Part shown: piece by piece, positions 138 to 52,093 of the stretch
Layout: every line of letters begins with the position of its first letter
Numbering within the stretch: the stretch's first letter is position 1
Assembly (NCBI GenBank): GCA_963716175.1
Contig: OY970296.1
Coordinates: 4,288,001 to 4,352,000, forward strand
DNA from: an uncultured Armatimonadetes bacterium
GTDB lineage: Bacteria > Armatimonadota > Hebobacteria > Hebobacterales > Hebobacteraceae
Length of the DNA: 64,000 nucleotides
Reading direction: 5' to 3'
Position numbers and translations under genes: made by a program
The notes under the pieces: generated by a model
The model's input: only the letters and a program-made list of their open reading frames with translations
What the model was told of the DNA's origin: nothing
Databases searched by the model: none

Positions 138-1367
138 TCACTGTGCGTGTGCTGCCCGAGGGCCTGCTGACGGCGCAGCAACGCGATAGAGGTGCACCGC
201 GTACGGCTCGAAGTCGTCCTCGAAGCGCCCGCCCCACATGGGGATAGTCCGCCCCTCCCCGATCACCTCCACGGCGCCATTCTCGCCCTCACCCCATGTC
301 CTCCTCAGGACCTCCAGTTTGAAGGAGCCATGGGTGGCCGCATTGCGCATGGCCACCGCGAACAGATAGATGTCGCTGCCCTGCCGCTTCACCATGATGT
401 CTATGGGGACGTTCGGGTTGGAGGTCATGACCCCGGCCGCATTCTCGATGGTAGGAGAGTTCAGGACCGGAGCAAGCGCCAGGATCTGCTGGTTGATCGC
501 CTTGACGGCGGCGCTCATCTCCGGGTCCGCGAGCAGGCCGGCCTCGATCTCCTCGGGCTGGAACTGGTGCACGAAGTAGATGATCCCCAGGGAGCCGTGG
601 ACGAGTGACATCCAGACTTCGGCCTTCACCTGGGCGGGGGTCGCCTTGCGGTCAGGGCGACTGATGTGCGTGCACTCGAGGGCGTTCCAGATCACCTTCT
701 GCCCCTGCGTCCACTGGCGAAGGCGATCCACTCCCTTGGCGATGAGCCAGAGCCAGTTCTCGCCATCGGGCAGATCCGGGTGCACCACGGGGTAGATATC
801 GAAGGAAACGAGGTCGCAGCCTTTGACATACTCGGGGTAGTCCGGGAGAGTACAGCCGATGCCCTTCCACTCGTCGTAGGCCACGCCCTGGCCCAGGTTC
901 AGCAGCACCGGCCGGGTGGGGTCGTTCCTGCGCATTTCCTGGTAGTCAGCAATGATCCTCTGGGTGGGGATGGCAGGACCATATCCGCCGCCGGGCAGCG
1001 GCTGCGCATTGTCCGGCTCATCCCCGTGCATCCAACCGATGATGATGGGCTCATCGCGATGGCGCAGGCCCGCCTGGTTCTGGTCGCAGATCACGAACAT
1101 GCCGGCCCTGCGCAGGGCTGCGAGCTGCTCCTCCGTTGGGCCCTCCCAGAGGCCGACATAGGTGTTGATGCCCAGCGCCCGATAGGCCTGCGCGTGCTTT
1201 GGGTCTTGCAGCCAGACCGCGAGCGGGAAGAACTTCGGGTCAGGAGAGGGCCCGTGCGACCAGGCCGCATAGGGGCTCTGGTGGGCAAAGGGCTCGGCCC
1301 GGCCGGCGTATGCCACCACCCCACAAATGACTGGCAGGATCAGGAGTCCGACTATGGCCCGCGTCAC
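138..1367 (-). CDS. Secreted glycoside-hydrolase-like (beta-galactosidase-like TIM barrel) protein
   Basis: Signal-peptide-like N-terminus after GTG at 1367 with AGGAGG RBS; WMHGDEPDN and SFDIYP motifs; AEVWMSLVHGSLGIIYF. Confidence 0.6.
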   Translation of the reverse strand: MTRAIVGLLILPVICGVVAYAGRAEPFAHQSPYAAWSHGPSPDPKFFPLAVWLQDPKHAQAYRALGINTYVGLWEGPTEEQLAALRRAGMFVICDQNQAGLRHRDEPIIIGWMHGDEPDNAQPLPGGGYGPAIPTQRIIADYQEMRRNDPTRPVLLNLGQGVAYDEWKGIGCTLPDYPEYVKGCDLVSFDIYPVVHPDLPDGENWLWLIAKGVDRLRQWTQGQKVIWNALECTHISRPDRKATPAQVKAEVWMSLVHGSLGIIYFVHQFQPEEIEAGLLADPEMSAAVKAINQQILALAPVLNSPTIENAAGVMTSNPNVPIDIMVKRQGSDIYLFAVAMRNAATHGSFKLEVLRRTWGEGENGAVEVIGEGRTIPMWGGRFEDDFEPYAVHLYRVAAPSAGPRAAHAQ

Positions 1368-1460: not shown

Positions 1461-1639
1461 GTACGCTTTAGGTGAGCGGTGGAGAAGAGAGCAGGAGACA
1501 GGTCCGCCGGGAAGTCGGCGGGCAGATCGCCGGCGCTCGACGGCTATGGCGACGGAGCGCTTCCGCCCGACGAGTCGGCGCTACAGGAGAGGGAGCGGCT
1601 GGCGTGGAACCCTCTTAGCGCATTGGGTGCGACCCGCGA

Positions 1640-3616
1640 ATGGCCCATCAGCTCGAGCCTGAGCAATCCTTCCTGCACCTGCCGCGACCCCGGGCCGTGC
1701 TACTCGGCGCCGCTCTGGCGATAGCTCTCGCCTTCCTCATCCCTTACTTCAACCTGTCCCTGAACAAGTTCGACTGGGCCTTCCGCCCGGTGCCGACCGG
1801 GCCGATCTTCCTGCTCTTTCTCCTGATCTGGCCCATCAACACGTTGCTGCGACGCTGCCGCCCGGGGTGGGCGTTCACCGGCCCCGAACTGCTGCTGGTG
1901 TATGCCATGATGGCGATCTGCGGCGCGCTGGCCAGCGAGGGACTATACGGCTACACCACCGTGAACTCGGTGCATGCCCGGTACTATGCGAGCCGCGAGA
2001 ACCGCTGGGCGGAACTGTTCCTGTCGAATCTCCCGGTCTGGCTACAGGTTGACCAGCCGGAGGCGGTGAGGTGGTTCTTCGAGGGGCGCCCAGAGGGGGC
2101 CGCCATACCCTGGCACGAATGGGTAGCGCCCATGGCGGCCTGGTCGGTGTTCGCGCTCGCGCTGTATGTCGCTTTCTTCTGCCTGGCCTCTCTGCTGCGC
2201 AAGGACTGGATCGAGGGGCAGCGACTGTCTTTCCCCATGGCCGCGCTCCCGATCGAGATGGCCGGCAACCCCGTACCCTCGGGCGGCAGTGCGTTCTTCC
2301 GCAATCCCCTGATGTGGGCCGGGTTTGCGCTGCCGGTGGTGCAATCGCTGATACAAATGGCCCACTCCTTTGCGCCCTCCGTGCCCTACTCCCCGCTGTA
2401 CTTCCACCTGGGGCGCTGGTTCGCCGGCGAGGGTCCCTGGGACTCTATCTCCGACACCTATGCTTACATCGGGTTTGAGACCATAGGCCTTCTCGCCCTG
2501 CTCCCGGCGGAAGTCTGCCTCAGCTTATGGCTCTTCTTCCTGGTGAACCGGACGCAGCTTCTCACCTTCGCCGCCCTGGGTTTTGGGCACGAGGGCCTGG
2601 GCGCGCGCGTCTTCAGCCCATCTATCTTCATCACCTACCAGGAGGCCGGGGGCTGTCTGATGCTGGCCCTCCTGCTGCTCTGGCAGTCGCGGCGTTCACT
2701 GGCGATGGCCTTCGGCGGACTCGTCGGCCGGCCTGTGCCTCACGACCCGCTGGATCCCATCTCGCACAGTGCGGCCGTGATAGGCCTGGCCTTGAGCGGC
2801 GTCTTTCTGACCTACTGGGCTTACCGCACCGGCATGGATCTCTCGGTGTTCGCCGCCCTCATGGTGGTCTTCTTCGCCTATTCGCTGGTGATGGCGCGGC
2901 TGGTGGCCGCGGCCGGCGTCTATGTCCCGGATGTGAGCATGTCACCCCGGGAGCTGTTGGTAGGCCTGGCAGGAAGCACCAGCTACTCGCCGGCCTCTCT
3001 CACCATGCTGACCTATCTGCAAGCCACCTTCATGCTGGAGTGGAAGGTGAGCTTCCTGCACTACACTGTAGATGACATGAAGATCCTGCACTCGGCCCGC
3101 CTCCCGGGCCGGCCCGCGGCCCTGGCGCTGCTGCTAGCGGTGGTGCTGATGATGCTGGTCGCGCCTTGGACGAACATCCATGCCGCCTACCAGTACGGCG
3201 CCAACAAGTTCGACATTTGGCAGTTCCGGGAAATGGGGCTGGGGCAGTTCGGGGAGCTCGCCGCCAACTTGCATACCCCCCGGGCGCCCGCTGCCTATCT
3301 CCCCCTGGGGCTGCTCTGCGGAGGAGCGGTGATGTTCGTCCTGAACTGGCTGCACACCAATTTCATCTGGTGGGGCTTGAGCCCAATCGGGTTCATCATG
3401 GGCGGCACGTGGGGCCTGGGAGATCGGATCTGGACCAATGCTCTCATCGCCTGGGTGGTGGTAGTCGGTCTGCGCAAGTTCGGGGGCCTGCGCCTCTACC
3501 GCAGATTCCGGCCCATGTTCCTGGGGATGGCGCTCGGCCACTTCGTGATCATAGGGCTGCGCAGCATGATTGACCCCATGCTAGGCCTGCACATGCAGCT
3601 CGCGGCCTGGGCGTGA
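1640..3616 (+). CDS. DUF6785/DUF6784-type polytopic membrane protein (paralog 1)
   Basis: 658 aa, many TM segments; FTGPELLLVY, WIEGQRLSFP, WWGLSPIG, KFGGLRLYRRFRPMFLG motifs shared with the two other paralogs. Confidence 0.75.
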   Translation: MAHQLEPEQSFLHLPRPRAVLLGAALAIALAFLIPYFNLSLNKFDWAFRPVPTGPIFLLFLLIWPINTLLRRCRPGWAFTGPELLLVYAMMAICGALASEGLYGYTTVNSVHARYYASRENRWAELFLSNLPVWLQVDQPEAVRWFFEGRPEGAAIPWHEWVAPMAAWSVFALALYVAFFCLASLLRKDWIEGQRLSFPMAALPIEMAGNPVPSGGSAFFRNPLMWAGFALPVVQSLIQMAHSFAPSVPYSPLYFHLGRWFAGEGPWDSISDTYAYIGFETIGLLALLPAEVCLSLWLFFLVNRTQLLTFAALGFGHEGLGARVFSPSIFITYQEAGGCLMLALLLLWQSRRSLAMAFGGLVGRPVPHDPLDPISHSAAVIGLALSGVFLTYWAYRTGMDLSVFAALMVVFFAYSLVMARLVAAAGVYVPDVSMSPRELLVGLAGSTSYSPASLTMLTYLQATFMLEWKVSFLHYTVDDMKILHSARLPGRPAALALLLAVVLMMLVAPWTNIHAAYQYGANKFDIWQFREMGLGQFGELAANLHTPRAPAAYLPLGLLCGGAVMFVLNWLHTNFIWWGLSPIGFIMGGTWGLGDRIWTNALIAWVVVVGLRKFGGLRLYRRFRPMFLGMALGHFVIIGLRSMIDPMLGLHMQLAAWA

Positions 3617-4742: not shown

Positions 4743-5389
4743 ATGCCAACTTTCGAGCAGATCTCGGAGCTGCTCCGAGTTGCTGTTGTCACCGACGACT
4801 CTGGCGCGGCGCACCGACTGACGGGTGCGCTGCGAGAGTCGGGTTGTGCCGTGCGAGCTTTCTCCCTCACCGGCCCCTCCGCGTGCGCTCGCGTGCGTGA
4901 GCTGAATCCAGCCGTGGTAGTGCTGCGGGTAGGCGGTCCCGGGGCCTCTTCGGCCTCCAGCTATCAAGACATCGCGGGCAACCACGGGCCTGCATTGGTC
5001 TTGGTCACACCCGCGGCCTCAGGCGAAAGCCTGGGCCTGGCCCGCGAGAGCGGCGCCTTCATGCACCTGGTGGAGCCCGTGATCCCACAGGCGCTGGTGG
5101 CCGCAGTCTGGCTGGCCTGCCGCGGGGTGAGGAATTGTGGCAGCTGAGCCGCCGCGTGACCGGGCTGCGAGAGTCGTTCGTCTCCCTGAGAGTAGTGGAA
5201 CGGGCGAAAGGGATCCTGATGCGACGCCTGCAACTGACGGAGCAGGAGGCGCACCGACGGCTCCAGGTGGAGAGCCGTAACCGCAATCGCAAGCTGGTGG
5301 AGACGGCCTGGCATGTGATCCAAGCCGATGCCCGGCTCTCCCGCGGCGGGACATCGCGTTCTCGGGCTGCCCGGTTCACTCCTCGCTGA
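4743..5389 (+). CDS. ANTAR-domain regulator with degenerate receiver domain (frameshift near 5125)
   Basis: Receiver-like N-half in one frame; ANTAR motif VVERAKGILMRRLQLTEQEAHRRLQVESRNRNRKL in ORF 5135-5389. Confidence 0.75.
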
Positions 5390-47217: not shown

Positions 47218-48312
47218 TTAGACCTTCGTCTGGTTCCCCAGGAATCCCTCTGACCAGAAGACCGGCTGGTAGCCTCGCCGCGTTACCCACTCCAGGGACT
47301 TGACGACTTTCTGCTGGACATCCGGCTGGAAGTGCACCAGCTCCTTGCGGAAATACTGCTCGTGGATGAGCAGCTCCATCAGCTCTCCGGTGTGGGGATC
47401 AGAGGCCTGCTGGTCGAGGTGGGCATCCACTTCCCCGACCTGCAGATTGTTCACGATGGCGTCAATGCTGACAAGCTTGAGGTTGAGATCCTGCTCATAC
47501 CAGGCGTCGCGGGTGTGCACGTGGTCGCTGATGTACCAGGCTGGATGGCCAGCCCCGATCAGAGTGCGAATGCCGCGGTCAGCCAAGGCGCGGCAGCTTT
47601 CCTTCGGGATCGCGCCCCAGTGCAGTGTGGTCTCTTCGCTGGTGACGGCCTCGCCTGCGAAACGCTTGATCTCCGCCATCACCAGCTCGAAGTCGCGGGC
47701 AATCTGCTCGTAAGCTGCGTCCCGGTAGATGCGATCTGGTTTGTTCTGGAGTGCGTGGAAGCTCAGATGCAACCAGTCCGAGTTCGCCTCCCACTGGCGG
47801 CGCCACTTATCGGGCATCCGCGCGATGGTGAAATCCCTGGCGACCGTCTGGTAGTAGATGTTGATGTGGACCTTGGCCCCGAACTGCTCGTGCATCCGCC
47901 GCCAGAACGCCAGATACCAGTGATCGAAGAGAGAGTCATACTGTTGAGGCGCCGTGCCCAGGTCTTTCAGAAACTCGATGTTATCATCAACTGAGAAGCG
48001 ATAGCGCGGCTGTGAGCCCTTGTCCCATAGGAGCGTGATGGAGTCCCGCCATTCCCCTGCCGCTGCCTTCGCCAGGGCCGCGATCTCGTTCTGGCGCTGG
48101 CGAAGAGTAACCCGGCACCGGAACTCGCATCCATCGGTCTCTGCCGGAGTTCCGTTGACTGTCACCTTGGCTCCAGGCGCCACCTGCCCGGTGACCTCAA
48201 TGGAGAGCCCCTCCGGAGTCTCGGCGCCGTCATGCCGGTTGAGAATGTCGCCATCCCAAGGGGTCACAATCTTCAGGTCTGCTGGGTGTGGACGGCCAAT
48301 CGTCGTGCTCAT
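47218..48312 (-). CDS. Hypothetical protein (Ig-like N-terminus plus polysaccharide-deacetylase-like domain)
   Basis: RFSVDDN, WLHLSFHA, LLIHEQYF; AAGGAG RBS. Confidence 0.55.
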   Translation of the reverse strand: MSTTIGRPHPADLKIVTPWDGDILNRHDGAETPEGLSIEVTGQVAPGAKVTVNGTPAETDGCEFRCRVTLRQRQNEIAALAKAAAGEWRDSITLLWDKGSQPRYRFSVDDNIEFLKDLGTAPQQYDSLFDHWYLAFWRRMHEQFGAKVHINIYYQTVARDFTIARMPDKWRRQWEANSDWLHLSFHALQNKPDRIYRDAAYEQIARDFELVMAEIKRFAGEAVTSEETTLHWGAIPKESCRALADRGIRTLIGAGHPAWYISDHVHTRDAWYEQDLNLKLVSIDAIVNNLQVGEVDAHLDQQASDPHTGELMELLIHEQYFRKELVHFQPDVQQKVVKSLEWVTRRGYQPVFWSEGFLGNQTKV

Positions 48313-48521
48313 CTCATCACTCTCCTTCGCGCGCAACGCATTGGGCTGGATGCCGCAGTCGGTCTCACTCACTCAGCCCGAGCCGGCGCGGTCTGGAAGC
48401 CGCGCCTTCTGGGAGTCGGGGCCGAGTTACTCGCCCTCCTTCGCCGCGCACCCATGGCAATCATCCTGCCTGGGGACGTGGAAACACTTGCCCTCGGCTG
48501 ACAGCGCGCGCCGGGCACCTG

Positions 48522-48550
48522 TGGACGCTTCCATGTCCACTGGGTACAAT
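48522..48550 (+). promoter_or_regulatory. Putative sigma70 promoter
   Basis: TGGACG-17 bp-TACAAT upstream of 48628. Confidence 0.45.
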
Positions 48551-48627
48551 GGCAGCCGCATAGTGCTTGGCATCGGGAAGCGTGGGGGTGCCTTGCTCGG
48601 GAAGGTGATGTCACGGGAGGCGGGCGA

Positions 48628-49233
48628 GTGGCAAGGAAGCTGATCTATGTCCCCATCATACACGGCGAGTCCGACTTGGGCAGTTTCGCCGAGCGGCTGA
48701 CAGCGATGGCACAGGAGCAGCTGAGCGCGGAGACCTGGAGGAGGCACCGACAGCAGGCAGAGAAGTTCTGGCGTAATCTGAGGGCGAAGGTGATGGAGCG
48801 AGTGACTCATGAGTTGGCGGGAACGAGCTGGGGCAAGCTGAGAGTCTACCAGGATGGAATGCCGGCGGGAGGGGAGACGGCCGGGCGCATTGTGGAGGAG
48901 CTAGCGGAAAAGGGAAGCCTCAACTACCAGCTAGTGAGGGATCTGGTGGCACGGGGCGCGCAGCTGGAGCACACCGAGCAGGCATCCTTGCTCAGACAAG
49001 AGTACCGCATGATCCGGCAGATCATCACCGCTTCGGAGCCGGCCGCGAGAGACCGCGCGCGCCAGGAGTATTCCCGCGTCAGCGAGGGTCTGCTTGAGCA
49101 GCGCGATCGGTTCATTGCCGGCCAGATCAACCACACCCTGAGGGAAGGAGAAGTGGGAGTGCTGTTCATCGGCGCGCTGCACCAAGTGAAGGACTACCTG
49201 CCGGGAGAGATCGAGATCATCCCGGTGCCCTGA
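48628..49233 (+). CDS. Hypothetical protein immediately upstream of the gas-vesicle cluster
   Basis: Clean 201-aa ORF: RKLIYVPIIH..DLGS, VYQDG, RDRFIA.QI..TL..GVLFIGALH. Confidence 0.7.
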   Translation: MARKLIYVPIIHGESDLGSFAERLTAMAQEQLSAETWRRHRQQAEKFWRNLRAKVMERVTHELAGTSWGKLRVYQDGMPAGGETAGRIVEELAEKGSLNYQLVRDLVARGAQLEHTEQASLLRQEYRMIRQIITASEPAARDRARQEYSRVSEGLLEQRDRFIAGQINHTLREGEVGVLFIGALHQVKDYLPGEIEIIPVP

Positions 49234-49287
49234 GGCGATGATGTTGCGCCTGGGTGACAAGTCGCCGCAACTTACGCCGATCTGCTA

Positions 49288-49316
49288 TTGACAGCGTGCT
49301 TGGGGCGGCGTAGTCT
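49288..49316 (+). promoter_or_regulatory. Sigma70 promoter of gvpA
   Basis: TTGACA-17 bp-TAGTCT. Confidence 0.75.
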
Positions 49317-49372
49317 AGCCGTCGTCGAGCAACCTGGGCCGTGCTTGGCACGGTCACTTATGGCTAGGACAG

Positions 49373-49418
49373 CCGTTCAGAGCCTGGATGCATCCAGGTC
49401 CCGAACGGTGGTTTTTTT
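49373..49418 (+). terminator. Intrinsic terminator in gvpA leader
   Basis: CCGTTC..CCTGGATGCATCCAGG..GAACGG followed by a T7 tract. Confidence 0.7.
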
Positions 49419-49494
49419 GGCCTGCCCAACGGAATCATCGCGCGCTGCGCGCGAGTCGTGGTGAGATGCCGCAGAGGAAAGGTGGTGATAAGGC

Positions 49495-49710
49495 ATGGCT
49501 GTAGAGAAGACGATCGCTTCCTCTAGCCTGGTAGAGGTGGTGGATCGCATCCTGGACAAGGGCGTGGTGATCGATGTCTGGGCCAGAGTCTCGCTGGTGG
49601 GCATTGAGCTGCTGGCGATCGAGGCCAGAGTAGTCATTGCCTCCGTCGAGACCTACTTGAAGTACGCCGAGGCCATCGGGCTGACCGCCACCGCCGCGGC
49701 GCCCGCCTAA
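49495..49710 (+). CDS. gvpA: Gas vesicle structural protein GvpA
   Basis: [64 protein letters not shown]. Confidence 0.98.
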
Positions 49711-49768
49711 CGGGGCGGTCGCCGCTTCCACTCGAGGGGACGATGGGGTTACCGGGGACTGGGGTTAT

Positions 49769-49797
49769 GCTGTCGAGACGCTAGCCGTCTCGACAGC
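49769..49797 (+). other. Stem-loop after gvpA (probable mRNA stabiliser or partial terminator)
   Basis: GCTGTCGAGACG-CTAGC-CGTCTCGACAGC, 12-bp perfect arms. Confidence 0.7.
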
Positions 49798-49879
49798 GCC
49801 CCCCCCGCCTAGCCGAGACTCACGGACGCTGCCCTGGCCACAGGGCAGCGCAGGGAAAGGGAGGAGAAGAGGGATCACT

Positions 49880-50203
49880 ATGACCAGTTTCGCAGAGAGC
49901 ATGCGCGGTTTGACCGCGGACATCGTGAGCAGCCGCGAGGAACGGCAGACCTGGCTCGGCACACTCAGAGCGGAGGTCAGCTCTATGCGCCGGGAGACGG
50001 CGTCGGCCCTCCGCCGGGACATGCGCGCCGCGGCTCGCGACCGGAGGGCTTTTGTGACCTCGCTCCGAGACGAAGTCGGGGAGATGCGCCAGGAGCTGAG
50101 CAGCGATCTGCAAGAGGCCCGTCAGGCCTGGCAGGAGACAACCGGGGCCAGGGCTGGGTCGCGGCCCGCCCGCTTGGGAAGGCGCACCAAGCGATCCAGG
50201 TGA
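49880..50203 (+). CDS. GvpC-like helical protein
   Basis: Position after gvpA; amphipathic helix with repeated L..LR.EV..MR.E units. Confidence 0.55.
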   Translation: MTSFAESMRGLTADIVSSREERQTWLGTLRAEVSSMRRETASALRRDMRAAARDRRAFVTSLRDEVGEMRQELSSDLQEARQAWQETTGARAGSRPARLGRRTKRSR

Positions 50204-50264
50204 GGTGGGGGGCGCTCCGGCAGACCGGGGCGCCCACCCTGGAGGTGAAGCTGGAGGGGCAGCG

Positions 50265-50696
50265 ATGAGCGAAGGCAACACCAGCACGAGAACAGAGGTG
50301 AGAGCGCAGAAGCTGATGACCTTACCATGCGCTTTCTGCCGGGGCAAAGGCAAGGACCCGTTCGATCTTCTCTCCGAGAAGTCGATCTGTGAGGTATGCG
50401 GAGGCCGAGGCGAGGTGACGGTGGCGGAGCCGATATTCGCCTGCGCCTTCTGCGGGGGCACCGGGATATTCCCGGGAAGCCGCTTGACCTGTACCACCTG
50501 CATGGGTAAGGGACTGGTCACCATCGAAGAGCCGGCGGAGGCCTGCGCGACCTGTCTTGGGGCAGGAGTCGTGGCGGGTCACACTCTGCCTTGTTCAGCC
50601 TGTGGGGGAAGAGGTCGCGTGACGGTAGCAAGCGAGCCAAGTCTGCGGCCACCAGCAAATCGCAGACAATCTACGGTGGGGCAACGCAAGAGATGA
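50265..50696 (+). CDS. DnaJ-type CxxCxGxG zinc-finger protein
   Basis: Six CxxCxGxG repeats, no J-domain. Confidence 0.8.
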   Translation: MSEGNTSTRTEVRAQKLMTLPCAFCRGKGKDPFDLLSEKSICEVCGGRGEVTVAEPIFACAFCGGTGIFPGSRLTCTTCMGKGLVTIEEPAEACATCLGAGVVAGHTLPCSACGGRGRVTVASEPSLRPPANRRQSTVGQRKR

Positions 50697-51682
50697 CAGG
50701 ATACAGCATGCTGACGGTGTTGGAGCCACAGCCCCAGGACGGGTTCGTGGAGACCGATTATGTGCGCGCCATCATGGGCCGGGCGCAGCGCTACCTGGAG
50801 GCCGGTTTCCCGGTGCACTTTCGCGGCGGTTCGGGGACCGGCAAGACCACCTTCGCCATGCACCTGGCGCACCTGGTGGGCCGACCCATGGTGCTCATCC
50901 ACGGAGATGAGGAGTTCAGCACCTCGAATCTGATCGGAGGAGAGCACGGCTATCGGCTGCGCAAGGTGGTGGACAACTTCATCCACTCGGTGCTGAAGAC
51001 GGAGGAGAGTCTCACCCGGCAGTGGGTGGACAACCGGCTCACTCTGGTCTGCAAGTATGGCTTCACCCTGGTCTACGATGAGTTCACGCGCTCCCGCCCA
51101 GAGGCGAACAATGTCCTGCTGTCCGTTCTCCAAGAAGGGATCCTGGATCTGCCGCTGGCACGGGGGGAAGAGGGCTACCTCCGAGTGGCCCCAGGCTTCA
51201 AGGCCATCTTCACCTCCAACCCGGAGGAGTACGCAGGCACGCACAAGGCGCAGGACGCCCTGCGAGACCGGATGGTGACGCTCGACCTCGACCACTTCGA
51301 CCGAGAGACTGAGATCGCCATCACCCACGCCAGGTCTCACCTCCCGCGAGAGGATGTGGAGCCGATCGTTGACCTGGTGAGGGCCTTTCGAGAGAGAGGC
51401 AGGTACGAGTTCTCCCCGACCGTGCGCGCGCCCATCATGATCGCCAAGGTCATCAGAGTGCGAGGGGCGGCCGTGCACCGAGAAGACGCGTTCTTCCGCG
51501 ATATCTGCCTGGATGTGCTCTCTTCAGAGAGCAGCCGCAGCGGAGTGGGCCGGGACGGGAAGGAAACCCGCATGCTGATCGAGAGCCTGATCGAGGAGCT
51601 ATGCCGGCGGCCAGCGGGAGAGCGGCCGCCACGCAGCCAGATGCCTGTTGCGGCTGATTTCGCGGCCGTGCAGATGGGATGA
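50693..51682 (+). CDS. gvpN: Gas vesicle AAA ATPase GvpN
   Basis: GGSGTGKT, VVDNFIHSV, WVDNRLT, YDEFTRSRPEANN, TSNPEEYAG. Confidence 0.95.
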   Translation: MTGYSMLTVLEPQPQDGFVETDYVRAIMGRAQRYLEAGFPVHFRGGSGTGKTTFAMHLAHLVGRPMVLIHGDEEFSTSNLIGGEHGYRLRKVVDNFIHSVLKTEESLTRQWVDNRLTLVCKYGFTLVYDEFTRSRPEANNVLLSVLQEGILDLPLARGEEGYLRVAPGFKAIFTSNPEEYAGTHKAQDALRDRMVTLDLDHFDRETEIAITHARSHLPREDVEPIVDLVRAFRERGRYEFSPTVRAPIMIAKVIRVRGAAVHREDAFFRDICLDVLSSESSRSGVGRDGKETRMLIESLIEELCRRPAGERPPRSQMPVAADFAAVQMG

Positions 51683-51980: not shown

Positions 51981-52093
51981 GCCTACGGCCGCCATGTCCC
52001 TAGGCCTGAAGGCCGGGATGGCGGCCCGCCGAAGGCGGGCCTAGCCAGCGGTCGGCTCTGGCGACCTAGCCGCTAGCGCGAAAGGAGACGTCA

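Follow-up and report, generated by a model that had tools for sequence, protein, structure and literature searches.

Background

Gas vesicles are costly organelles, and the protein GvpA is needed for them in very large amounts. Their regulation involves GvpD and GvpE in the haloarchaea, and sigma-54 activators, quorum sensing, and RsmA in Serratia. To our knowledge, the known controls act on the initiation of transcription or on translation. The locus described here shares its target with those systems, namely the promoter region of gvpA or its mRNA. The openly searchable literature, judged on titles and the starts of abstracts, yielded no natural leader terminator or riboswitch for gvp genes. 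This fits the view, put forward in an earlier note made from the sequence alone, that antitermination would be unusual for gvp operons.

Comparable devices are found in other systems. In the trp-type, RAT/LicT, and T-box attenuators, as in the gvpA leader, mutually exclusive helices share a strand and the element lies between the promoter and the start codon. Unlike the trp-type leaders, the gvpA leader has no conserved leader peptide, since the AUG at 49360 is not preceded by a Shine-Dalgarno sequence and is absent from one of the related loci (L108). Unlike the T-box leaders, it shows no T-box features by Rfam and, at about 95 nt, is too short. The HMP-PP (thiS) riboswitch class has a very small sensing element embedded in an intrinsic terminator, with few conserved nucleotides. 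The gvpA leader is similar to it in having a tiny conserved element that is merged with the left shoulder of the terminator, but it matches no Rfam family, including thiS, and its context is gas vesicles rather than thiamin.

In ANTAR leaders, termination is the default outcome and is relieved by a loop-binding protein, each site having two hexanucleotide loops in which position 1 is A and position 4 is G (PMC3369931). Like the leaders targeted by EutV, NasR, and AmiR, the gvpA leader has a small hairpin at the 5' base of the terminator that excludes the terminator, and a second hairpin a few nucleotides upstream across a short linker. Unlike those sites, its loop has 7 nt with A2 and G4, rather than being a hexaloop with A1 and G4 (PMC3369931).

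Results and discussion

The gvpA locus and its leader

The window, which is the whole stretch of 64,000 nucleotides analysed here, contains a gas-vesicle cluster that begins with gvpA, the identity of which is certain (Table 1). The genes that follow encode, in order, a 107-aa coiled-coil protein, a 163-aa DnaJ-type zinc-finger protein, GvpN, GvpO, Hsp20/GvpH, a CDC48-type ATPase, and GvpF/L. The gene preceding gvpA, referred to here as gene X, is on the same strand, and the spacer between the two is 261 nt. On the evidence of sequence comparison, this spacer probably holds a gvpA 5' leader that acts as a transcription attenuator.

Table 1. Positions of the features of the gvpA locus in the window, and of features in other loci referred to in the text
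Feature	Position	Strand	Basis or remark
Gene X, 201 aa	48628..49233	+	ORF; associated with the gvp cluster, without a named family
Sigma-70-type promoter TTGACA-17-TAGTCT	49288..49316	+	Read from the sequence; counterpart in 11/11 other loci
Predicted leader RNA, about 96 nt	49323..49418	+	Inferred start to end of T tract
Upstream hairpin	49337..49355 (core CCGUGC-UUG-GCACGG 49339-49353)	+	Sequence, fold
Antiterminator hairpin AUGGC(U)-AGGAC-(A)GCCGU	49360..49376	+	Fold and covariation
Intrinsic terminator	49368..49418	+	Fold, covariation
Distal 5' UTR of gvpA	49419..49494	+	Two GC-rich hairpins and a strong Shine-Dalgarno sequence
gvpA, major gas-vesicle structural protein, 71 aa	49495..49710	+	PF00741 7.5e-15; NF006874 GvpA 2e-39
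Look-alike L195 (G086)	1501-1568		Before an ECF sigma gene
Look-alike L202 (G120)	677-751	-	Before a small membrane protein gene
Look-alike L194 (G117)	161-226	-	Before an ORF cut by the contig end
Sigma-54-like boxes, L052	4300-4470
Sigma-54-like boxes, L095	4890-5058
Sigma-54-like boxes, L068	about 500-620	-

The promoter consists of TTGACA (49288-49293), a 17-nt spacer, and TAGTCT (49311-49316), and matches the consensus at 9 of 12 positions. It was the only intergenic site found in a custom scan for at least 8 of 12 matches plus A2 and T6. The leader would start 7 nt after the -10 hexamer, a position taken from promoter geometry only. The RNA from this predicted start to the T tract, 98 nt, folds at -42.3 kcal/mol (z = -3.21), with 1 of 200 shuffles as good.

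Most of the structure is at the 3' end of this RNA. The terminator is a GC-rich hairpin followed by a U tract; its stem (49372-49378/49403-49409) encloses an inner stem (49382-49388/49393-49399), and the T7 tract (49412-49418) ends 76 nt before the gvpA ATG (49495). The sequence from 49368 to 49420 folds at -24.1 kcal/mol (z = -3.79), and none of 200 shuffles was as good. Directly 5' of the terminator, GGCT (49362-49365) faces AGCC (49371-49374) in a small hairpin of -6.2 kcal/mol, which has the general form NN-GGY, a 7-nt loop YARGNNA, and GCC-NN. The first 4 to 6 nucleotides of the terminator are common to both structures, so that the small hairpin and the terminator base are mutually exclusive. 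The near-consensus promoter, the upstream hairpin CCGTGC-TTG-GCACGG, the competing GGCT/AGCC pairing at the terminator base, and a long terminator with a T7 tract about 75 nt before gvpA had all been read in the earlier note, and all are present.

Beyond the terminator, the distal UTR has one hairpin at about 49439-49455 and another at about 49458-49472, and its Shine-Dalgarno sequence, AGGUGGUGA, occupies 49480-49488. In the hairpin immediately 5' of the Shine-Dalgarno sequence both strands differ among the window and two related loci (L108 and L106). The fold of 49419-49494 is unexceptional (z = +0.69), as is that of the whole 177 nt up to the ATG (z = -1.30, 21 of 200 shuffles).

The stock scans listed neither the promoter nor the terminator. 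The promoter was passed over because TAGTCT matches the -10 consensus at just 3 of 6 positions, and the terminator was missed because its stem has internal loops and the T run begins 3 nt past the stem. The weak hexamer and the silence of the scans could be taken to mean that an ordinary terminator of gene X has been paired by chance with an unrelated promoter-like match. The promoter, however, is upstream of the terminator and not after it, and 11 loci share the complete arrangement, with changes between them that are compensatory. The comparative data contradict a chance origin, which we regard as extremely improbable.

The genome of the window is a single 4.56-Mb contig, 90.85% complete, with 50 DUF1559 matches, a feature characteristic of Planctomycetota and neighbouring groups. 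The DNA runs containing the locus are sediment and wetland metagenomes. When contigs from four DNA runs were compared with 49100-49800, the leader was covered by one contig in each of two runs; these show 2 differences in 431-463 nt, none of them listed within 49234-49482.

Two further elements were seen within the cluster. A perfect 12-bp hairpin at 49769-49797, 59 nt 3' of the gvpA stop codon, is followed by a C run and not a T tract. It may stabilise the 3' end of the mRNA or, as a partial stop, determine the proportion of gvpA to the genes after it. Between gvpO and gvpH, at about 52000-52050 on the minus strand, is a GC-rich repeat of approximately 50 nt, GGCTAGGCCCGCC...GGCGGGCC...GGCCTAGGGAC, of a type present at more than 8 sites in the same genome. 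It looks like a REP-type intergenic element.

Related loci

A BLAST search with the leader DNA against 40 relatives aligned solely the gvpA coding part of one genome (G018). Relatives of the leader were therefore located with the gene X protein as bait, which was chosen because it is more lineage-specific and because the leader is too diverged for a DNA search. Ten related loci, one in G018 (L003) and nine on metagenome contigs, carry a unit made up of a TTGaca-17-TAnnnT promoter, a leader of approximately 90 nt, a GGY-CARGGUA-GCC hairpin, and an intrinsic terminator. In nine of these gvpA is just downstream; the tenth contig (L110) stops inside the spacer. Gene X followed by gvpA at a distance of 256-686 nt was found in 10 relatives, these being L003 and nine metagenome contigs.

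The promoter has an equivalent in all 11 other loci, including L111, either as TTGaca-17/18-TAnnnT or with a TGn-extended -10. Measured from the -10 hexamer to one to four bases beyond the T-rich run, where the element was taken to end, the span is 87-107 nt in 10 of 11 loci; the exception is L116, with 124 nt. All 11 loci that carry the unit have a T-rich tract after the stem, and promoter, terminator, and ATG come in the same order in each of the nine other loci that extend as far as the ATG. Most of the primary sequence differs between the loci, while the promoter and the length of the leader are preserved. The first half of the leader, its 5' domain, cannot be aligned across the loci; an upstream hairpin is at a similar place in most relatives, with a different and unalignable sequence. 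The second half aligns well, with an invariant GG, a 7-nt loop with an invariant A and G, an invariant GCC, the stem, GGCU, and the T-rich tract. Counted outside the 3' strand of the terminator, seven positions are invariant (G49362, G49363, A49366, G49368, G49372, C49373, and C49374). The loop of L120 departs from the consensus. The objection that the arrangement might show no conservation, anticipated in the earlier note, fails, since 11 loci have kept not only the promoter and the length of the leader but also the terminator and the hairpin that competes with it.

The distance from the T tract to the gvpA ATG is 76, 79, 77, 78, 75, 69, and 74 nt in seven loci. In L113 it is about 80 nt, whereas L116 and L120 have about 147 nt. 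The terminator is thus 69-80 nt 5' of gvpA in 8 of the 10 loci with a measurable distance. Because this spacing is kept while that from the gene X stop codon to the ATG varies from 256 to 686 nt, the element travels with gvpA and not with gene X.

With its strong terminator and with a promoter and a length that are both conserved, the element has all the parts that a gene needs. It could be a stand-alone small RNA gene, the product of which, approximately 95 nt long, would act in trans, possibly with gvp mRNAs as targets, with gvpA transcribed from a promoter of its own within the 76 nt. The stretch of 76 nt after the terminator is conserved among the closest relatives, its GC-rich hairpins could cap the 5' end of an mRNA, and in L116 and L120 a promoter could fit into the roughly 147 nt that separate the element from the ATG. 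However, no second sigma-70-like site with at least 8 of 12 matches was found between the terminator and the ATG in the 11 intergenic regions scanned, and the tight spacing in 8 of 10 loci would not be expected of an independent gene. Nor was the element ever found apart from gvpA, with one match in its own genome and none in 164 other loci. In addition, a plain small RNA has no need of a hairpin that competes with its terminator, yet this hairpin covaries. A small RNA gene, although the leading alternative, is accordingly considered unlikely. With regard to other promoter types, no sigma-54 box was seen by eye between the terminator and the gvpA ATG. ECF-like GAAC/GGAAT ... GTC boxes are present 3' of the terminator in some group-A loci, with inconsistent spacing, and a non-sigma-70 promoter may be present just 3' of the terminator.

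One relative has kept only part of the unit. In L111 (2244-2439) the promoter and the GGCCAGGA motif are retained, the terminator has decayed, and the T tract is absent; the covariance model described below misses this locus. L111 may be a natural constitutive variant, and since it has no recognisable terminator the switch would be dispensable in at least one relative. Because of the decayed terminator it was left out of alignments A3 and A4 and of the covariance model. A further locus, L107 (3200-3354), was excluded from the analysis. It is the same as L108 (1040-1060) throughout gene X and for 90 nt into the spacer, but just before the promoter the two diverge abruptly and are unrelated from there on; the breakpoint is either an assembly chimera or a rearrangement. 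The long spacer between gene X and gvpA in L114 contains a (GGGCAGG)n microsatellite at 3225-3285.

Covariation of the two helices

The second half of the leader was aligned from 11 sequences, which fall into about 4 subgroups (alignment A4). At the terminator base, 88.6% of 105 cells in 10 basal pairs are paired, and 5 of the 10 pairs have changed on both sides. The covariation score was 0.318 against 0.156 in shuffles (0 of 500 as high), to be read with the caution that related sequences may beat shuffles even without structure, and slid controls reached at most 0.093. By RNAalifold, 7 of 12 pairs of the terminator are compensatory.

In the antiterminator, columns 6-11 pair with columns 19-22 and 27-28, which correspond in the window to 49359-49364 and 49372-49377. 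Of its 64 cells 85.9% are paired, and it scored 0.385 against 0.202 in shuffles (0 of 500), with slid controls at or below 0.152. Both helices therefore exceed all 500 shuffles and the slid controls in the comparison of related gvpA leaders that the earlier note had suggested. Columns 8-11 with 19-22 are paired in 97.7% of cells, and the outer two pairs hold in just 60%. The pair of columns 8 and 22 occurs as five standard pair types (UA3, AU2, CG2, GC2, UG1, with 1 unpaired). In the terminator, the same column 22 (G49375) pairs with column 61, as AU3, GC3, CG2, and UG2, with 1 unpaired. A column that covaries with two alternative partners is the signature predicted for a terminator/antiterminator switch. 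The support for the antiterminator comes from this one strongly covarying pair and two that covary partly. In L108 the key pair is G-G, and the hairpin there is of 3 bp and -3.3 kcal/mol. The occurrence of U-G and G-U pairs in both helices, together with reverse-strand scores of at most 28 bits against 40-68, indicates that the functional RNA is on the plus strand.

Across the loci the antiterminator has -3.3 to -10.5 kcal/mol against -19.7 to -35.9 kcal/mol for the terminator. When nascent RNA was folded up to a point before the 3' strand of the terminator, the small hairpin formed in 7 of 11 sequences. The terminator was the sole structure that RNAalifold predicted from the full-length MAFFT alignment, and the subgroup alignments gave differing 5' folds. 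A conserved anti-antiterminator in the transcribed 5' domain was not found (mean z = +0.15 over 11 loci). As the 5' strand of the hairpin has no conserved partner in this domain, a three-helix scheme of the trp type is not supported. Visual inspection for pseudoknot pairing of the 7-nt loop with the 5' domain gave no register that all the loci share.

A model for the leader

An alternative helix that shares a strand of the terminator and itself covaries is present between the promoter and the start codon of gvpA, on the same strand. It is this combination that points to attenuation. In the proposed mechanism the small hairpin would form first on the nascent RNA. The 3' strand of the terminator would then displace it on emerging, and transcription would stop. 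Termination would be the default outcome, giving a short RNA of approximately 95 nt, because the small hairpin is no match for the terminator in stability. Some protein or ligand would hold the small hairpin closed while the polymerase passes, which would allow read-through into gvpA and the downstream gvp genes.

A simpler arrangement would be an unregulated, leaky terminator that ends the transcripts of gene X and damps the gvpA promoter to a fixed level, the small hairpin merely tuning the leak. Transcripts of gene X would run into the leader, and since gene X has no terminator of its own before it, they must end at the leader terminator. The untranscribed DNA of the promoter (49280-49322 in the window, and its equivalents in L106, L108, and L003) complements the 5' strand of the antiterminator, with z = -1.6 to -3.2. 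This would be relevant only to transcripts reading through from gene X, the termination of which it would make more complete. The finding of no conserved sensor domain is also in keeping with a leaky terminator. On the other hand, the invariant A49366 and G49368 of the loop would have no role in a purely structural tuner, the distance that is kept is that to gvpA and not that to gene X, and the promoter complementarity is not general (mean z -0.92 over 11 loci, 7 of 11 being unremarkable). Such a terminator is an explanation to which we give little credence, and a regulated attenuator is preferred.

With respect to what an attenuator would sense, we lean slightly towards a protein that binds the hairpin over a metabolite, because the few invariant nucleotides are in the loop of the hairpin and its top pairs. 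It is possible, although this is speculative and we would not expect it, that the hairpin with the 7-nt loop is the aptamer of a new, tiny riboswitch, or is bound by a new antiterminator protein that the cluster itself encodes, and that gas vesicles are switched on in response to a cellular signal. Of the two possibilities raised in the earlier note, a riboswitch or an attenuator, the attenuator gains strong support from the 11 loci, among which both helices covary. The same does not hold for the riboswitch, there being only about seven invariant positions, a 5' domain that cannot be aligned, and no Rfam match.

Candidate sensors

The leader had already been noted as matching no known riboswitch, and Rfam scans of the window and 10 relatives agree with this. 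A cmscan of 48000-51000 of the window against 4227 families of Rfam 15 gave no match to the leader at E up to 10, and scans of the 10 related loci gave none at E up to 5.

As in ANTAR-regulated leaders, the small hairpin overlaps the 5' base of the terminator, and ANTAR proteins are encoded in the genome, five having PF03861 above the cut-off. One of the five ANTAR-domain ORFs is in the window, at 5165-5320, 44 kb upstream of the gvp cluster. The leader was nonetheless rejected as an ANTAR target of the described kind. It departs from the loop rule (PMC3369931), having a 7-nt loop with A2 and G4 in 11 of 11 loci and upstream loops of 3-11 nt that share no letters. A CsrA/RsmA site was also rejected. 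GGA is in the loop of 3 of 11 loci (the window, L112, and L114), and a search of the window's genome for PF02599, at 90.85% completeness and with controls that did give matches, found 0 matches.

The genes for the 107-aa and zinc-finger proteins are confined, among the loci compared, to the clade that bears the leader (L111 counted), although few of the other loci reach that far. This makes the two proteins candidates for factors encoded within the cluster, and that either is the antitermination factor is a guess.

In three gas-vesicle loci of other lineages, sigma-54-like TGGCA-N-TTGC boxes are found shortly 5' of gvpA, without a leader terminator (Table 1). In L092 and L047 a reading frame reaches to shortly before gvpA, which we guess to be a response-regulator gene.

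Distribution of the motif

A covariance model (R1) was seeded on A4. In the window's own genome (G000) the motif is single-copy, with 150 of about 3200 first-look candidates scored. Of 31 genomes of the class, two contain it, namely G000 and G018, the same two that have gene X. A search of 164 other loci with the model found nothing outside the training set.

In 150 other genomes of the phylum there are nine weak matches to the model, at 25-30 bits and E-values of 8e-4 to 8e-3 per genome. Three of these are look-alikes in which a GGC-CAGGnnn-GCC hairpin (CAGGAAA, CAGGGUU, or CAGGGAC) is merged with an intrinsic terminator and has paired flanks (Table 1). Another (L199 in G147) is before glnA, and has a hexaloop, AAGGGA, at the terminator base that fits the A1/G4 rule of ANTAR sites. 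Two more (L197 in G069 and L200 in G105) are before ilvB, the gene for acetolactate synthase, in leaders that, from a motif they contain, may be T-box leaders. As the model selects these very features and the E-values are rough, the weak matches are best seen as leads and not as members. The look-alikes may mean that the device is used more widely, or they may be chance matches driven by the model.

Gene X

Gene X has no Pfam or NCBIfam family above the cut-off; its sole family match is to TraB/PrgY/GumN, and is weak at 16.8 bits. It is present in 3 of 401 genomes of the phylum, with the window's own genome counted. Named genomes contain 393 relatives and metagenomes at least 535, and these span many bacterial phyla and the Methanotrichaceae. 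The best 80 of the 393 in named genomes are at most 45% identical; among these 80 the arrangement of gene X, leader, and gvpA is absent, and none is directly followed by gvpA. The metagenome relatives are closer, with 43-76% identity.

Homologues of gene X are directly 5' of the leader in all of the related loci. In the few loci examined, relatives of gene X adjoin gvp genes. In the leader clade and a few other loci the neighbour is gvpA, and in G276 the neighbours are gvpH and the CDC48 gene. Gene X looks like an undescribed, widespread gas-vesicle accessory protein. In L126 and L119 it is followed by an ORF that we guess from its translation to be rpoN-like.

Conclusions

The leader of gvpA would be a new RNA motif. 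The type of control that it would exert is known, but is undescribed for this gene family. As a candidate structured RNA it is absent from Rfam, and the sequences at hand are already sufficient for a seed alignment. If true, a conserved terminator switch in the gvpA leader adds a third level to the control of gas vesicles and would be the first transcription attenuation described for buoyancy organelles. It would also provide a compact, portable on/off element for gas-vesicle reporter constructs. Should a ligand or a dedicated protein be found, this would be a pointer to the signal by which these uncultivated bacteria of sediments and wetlands decide to float.
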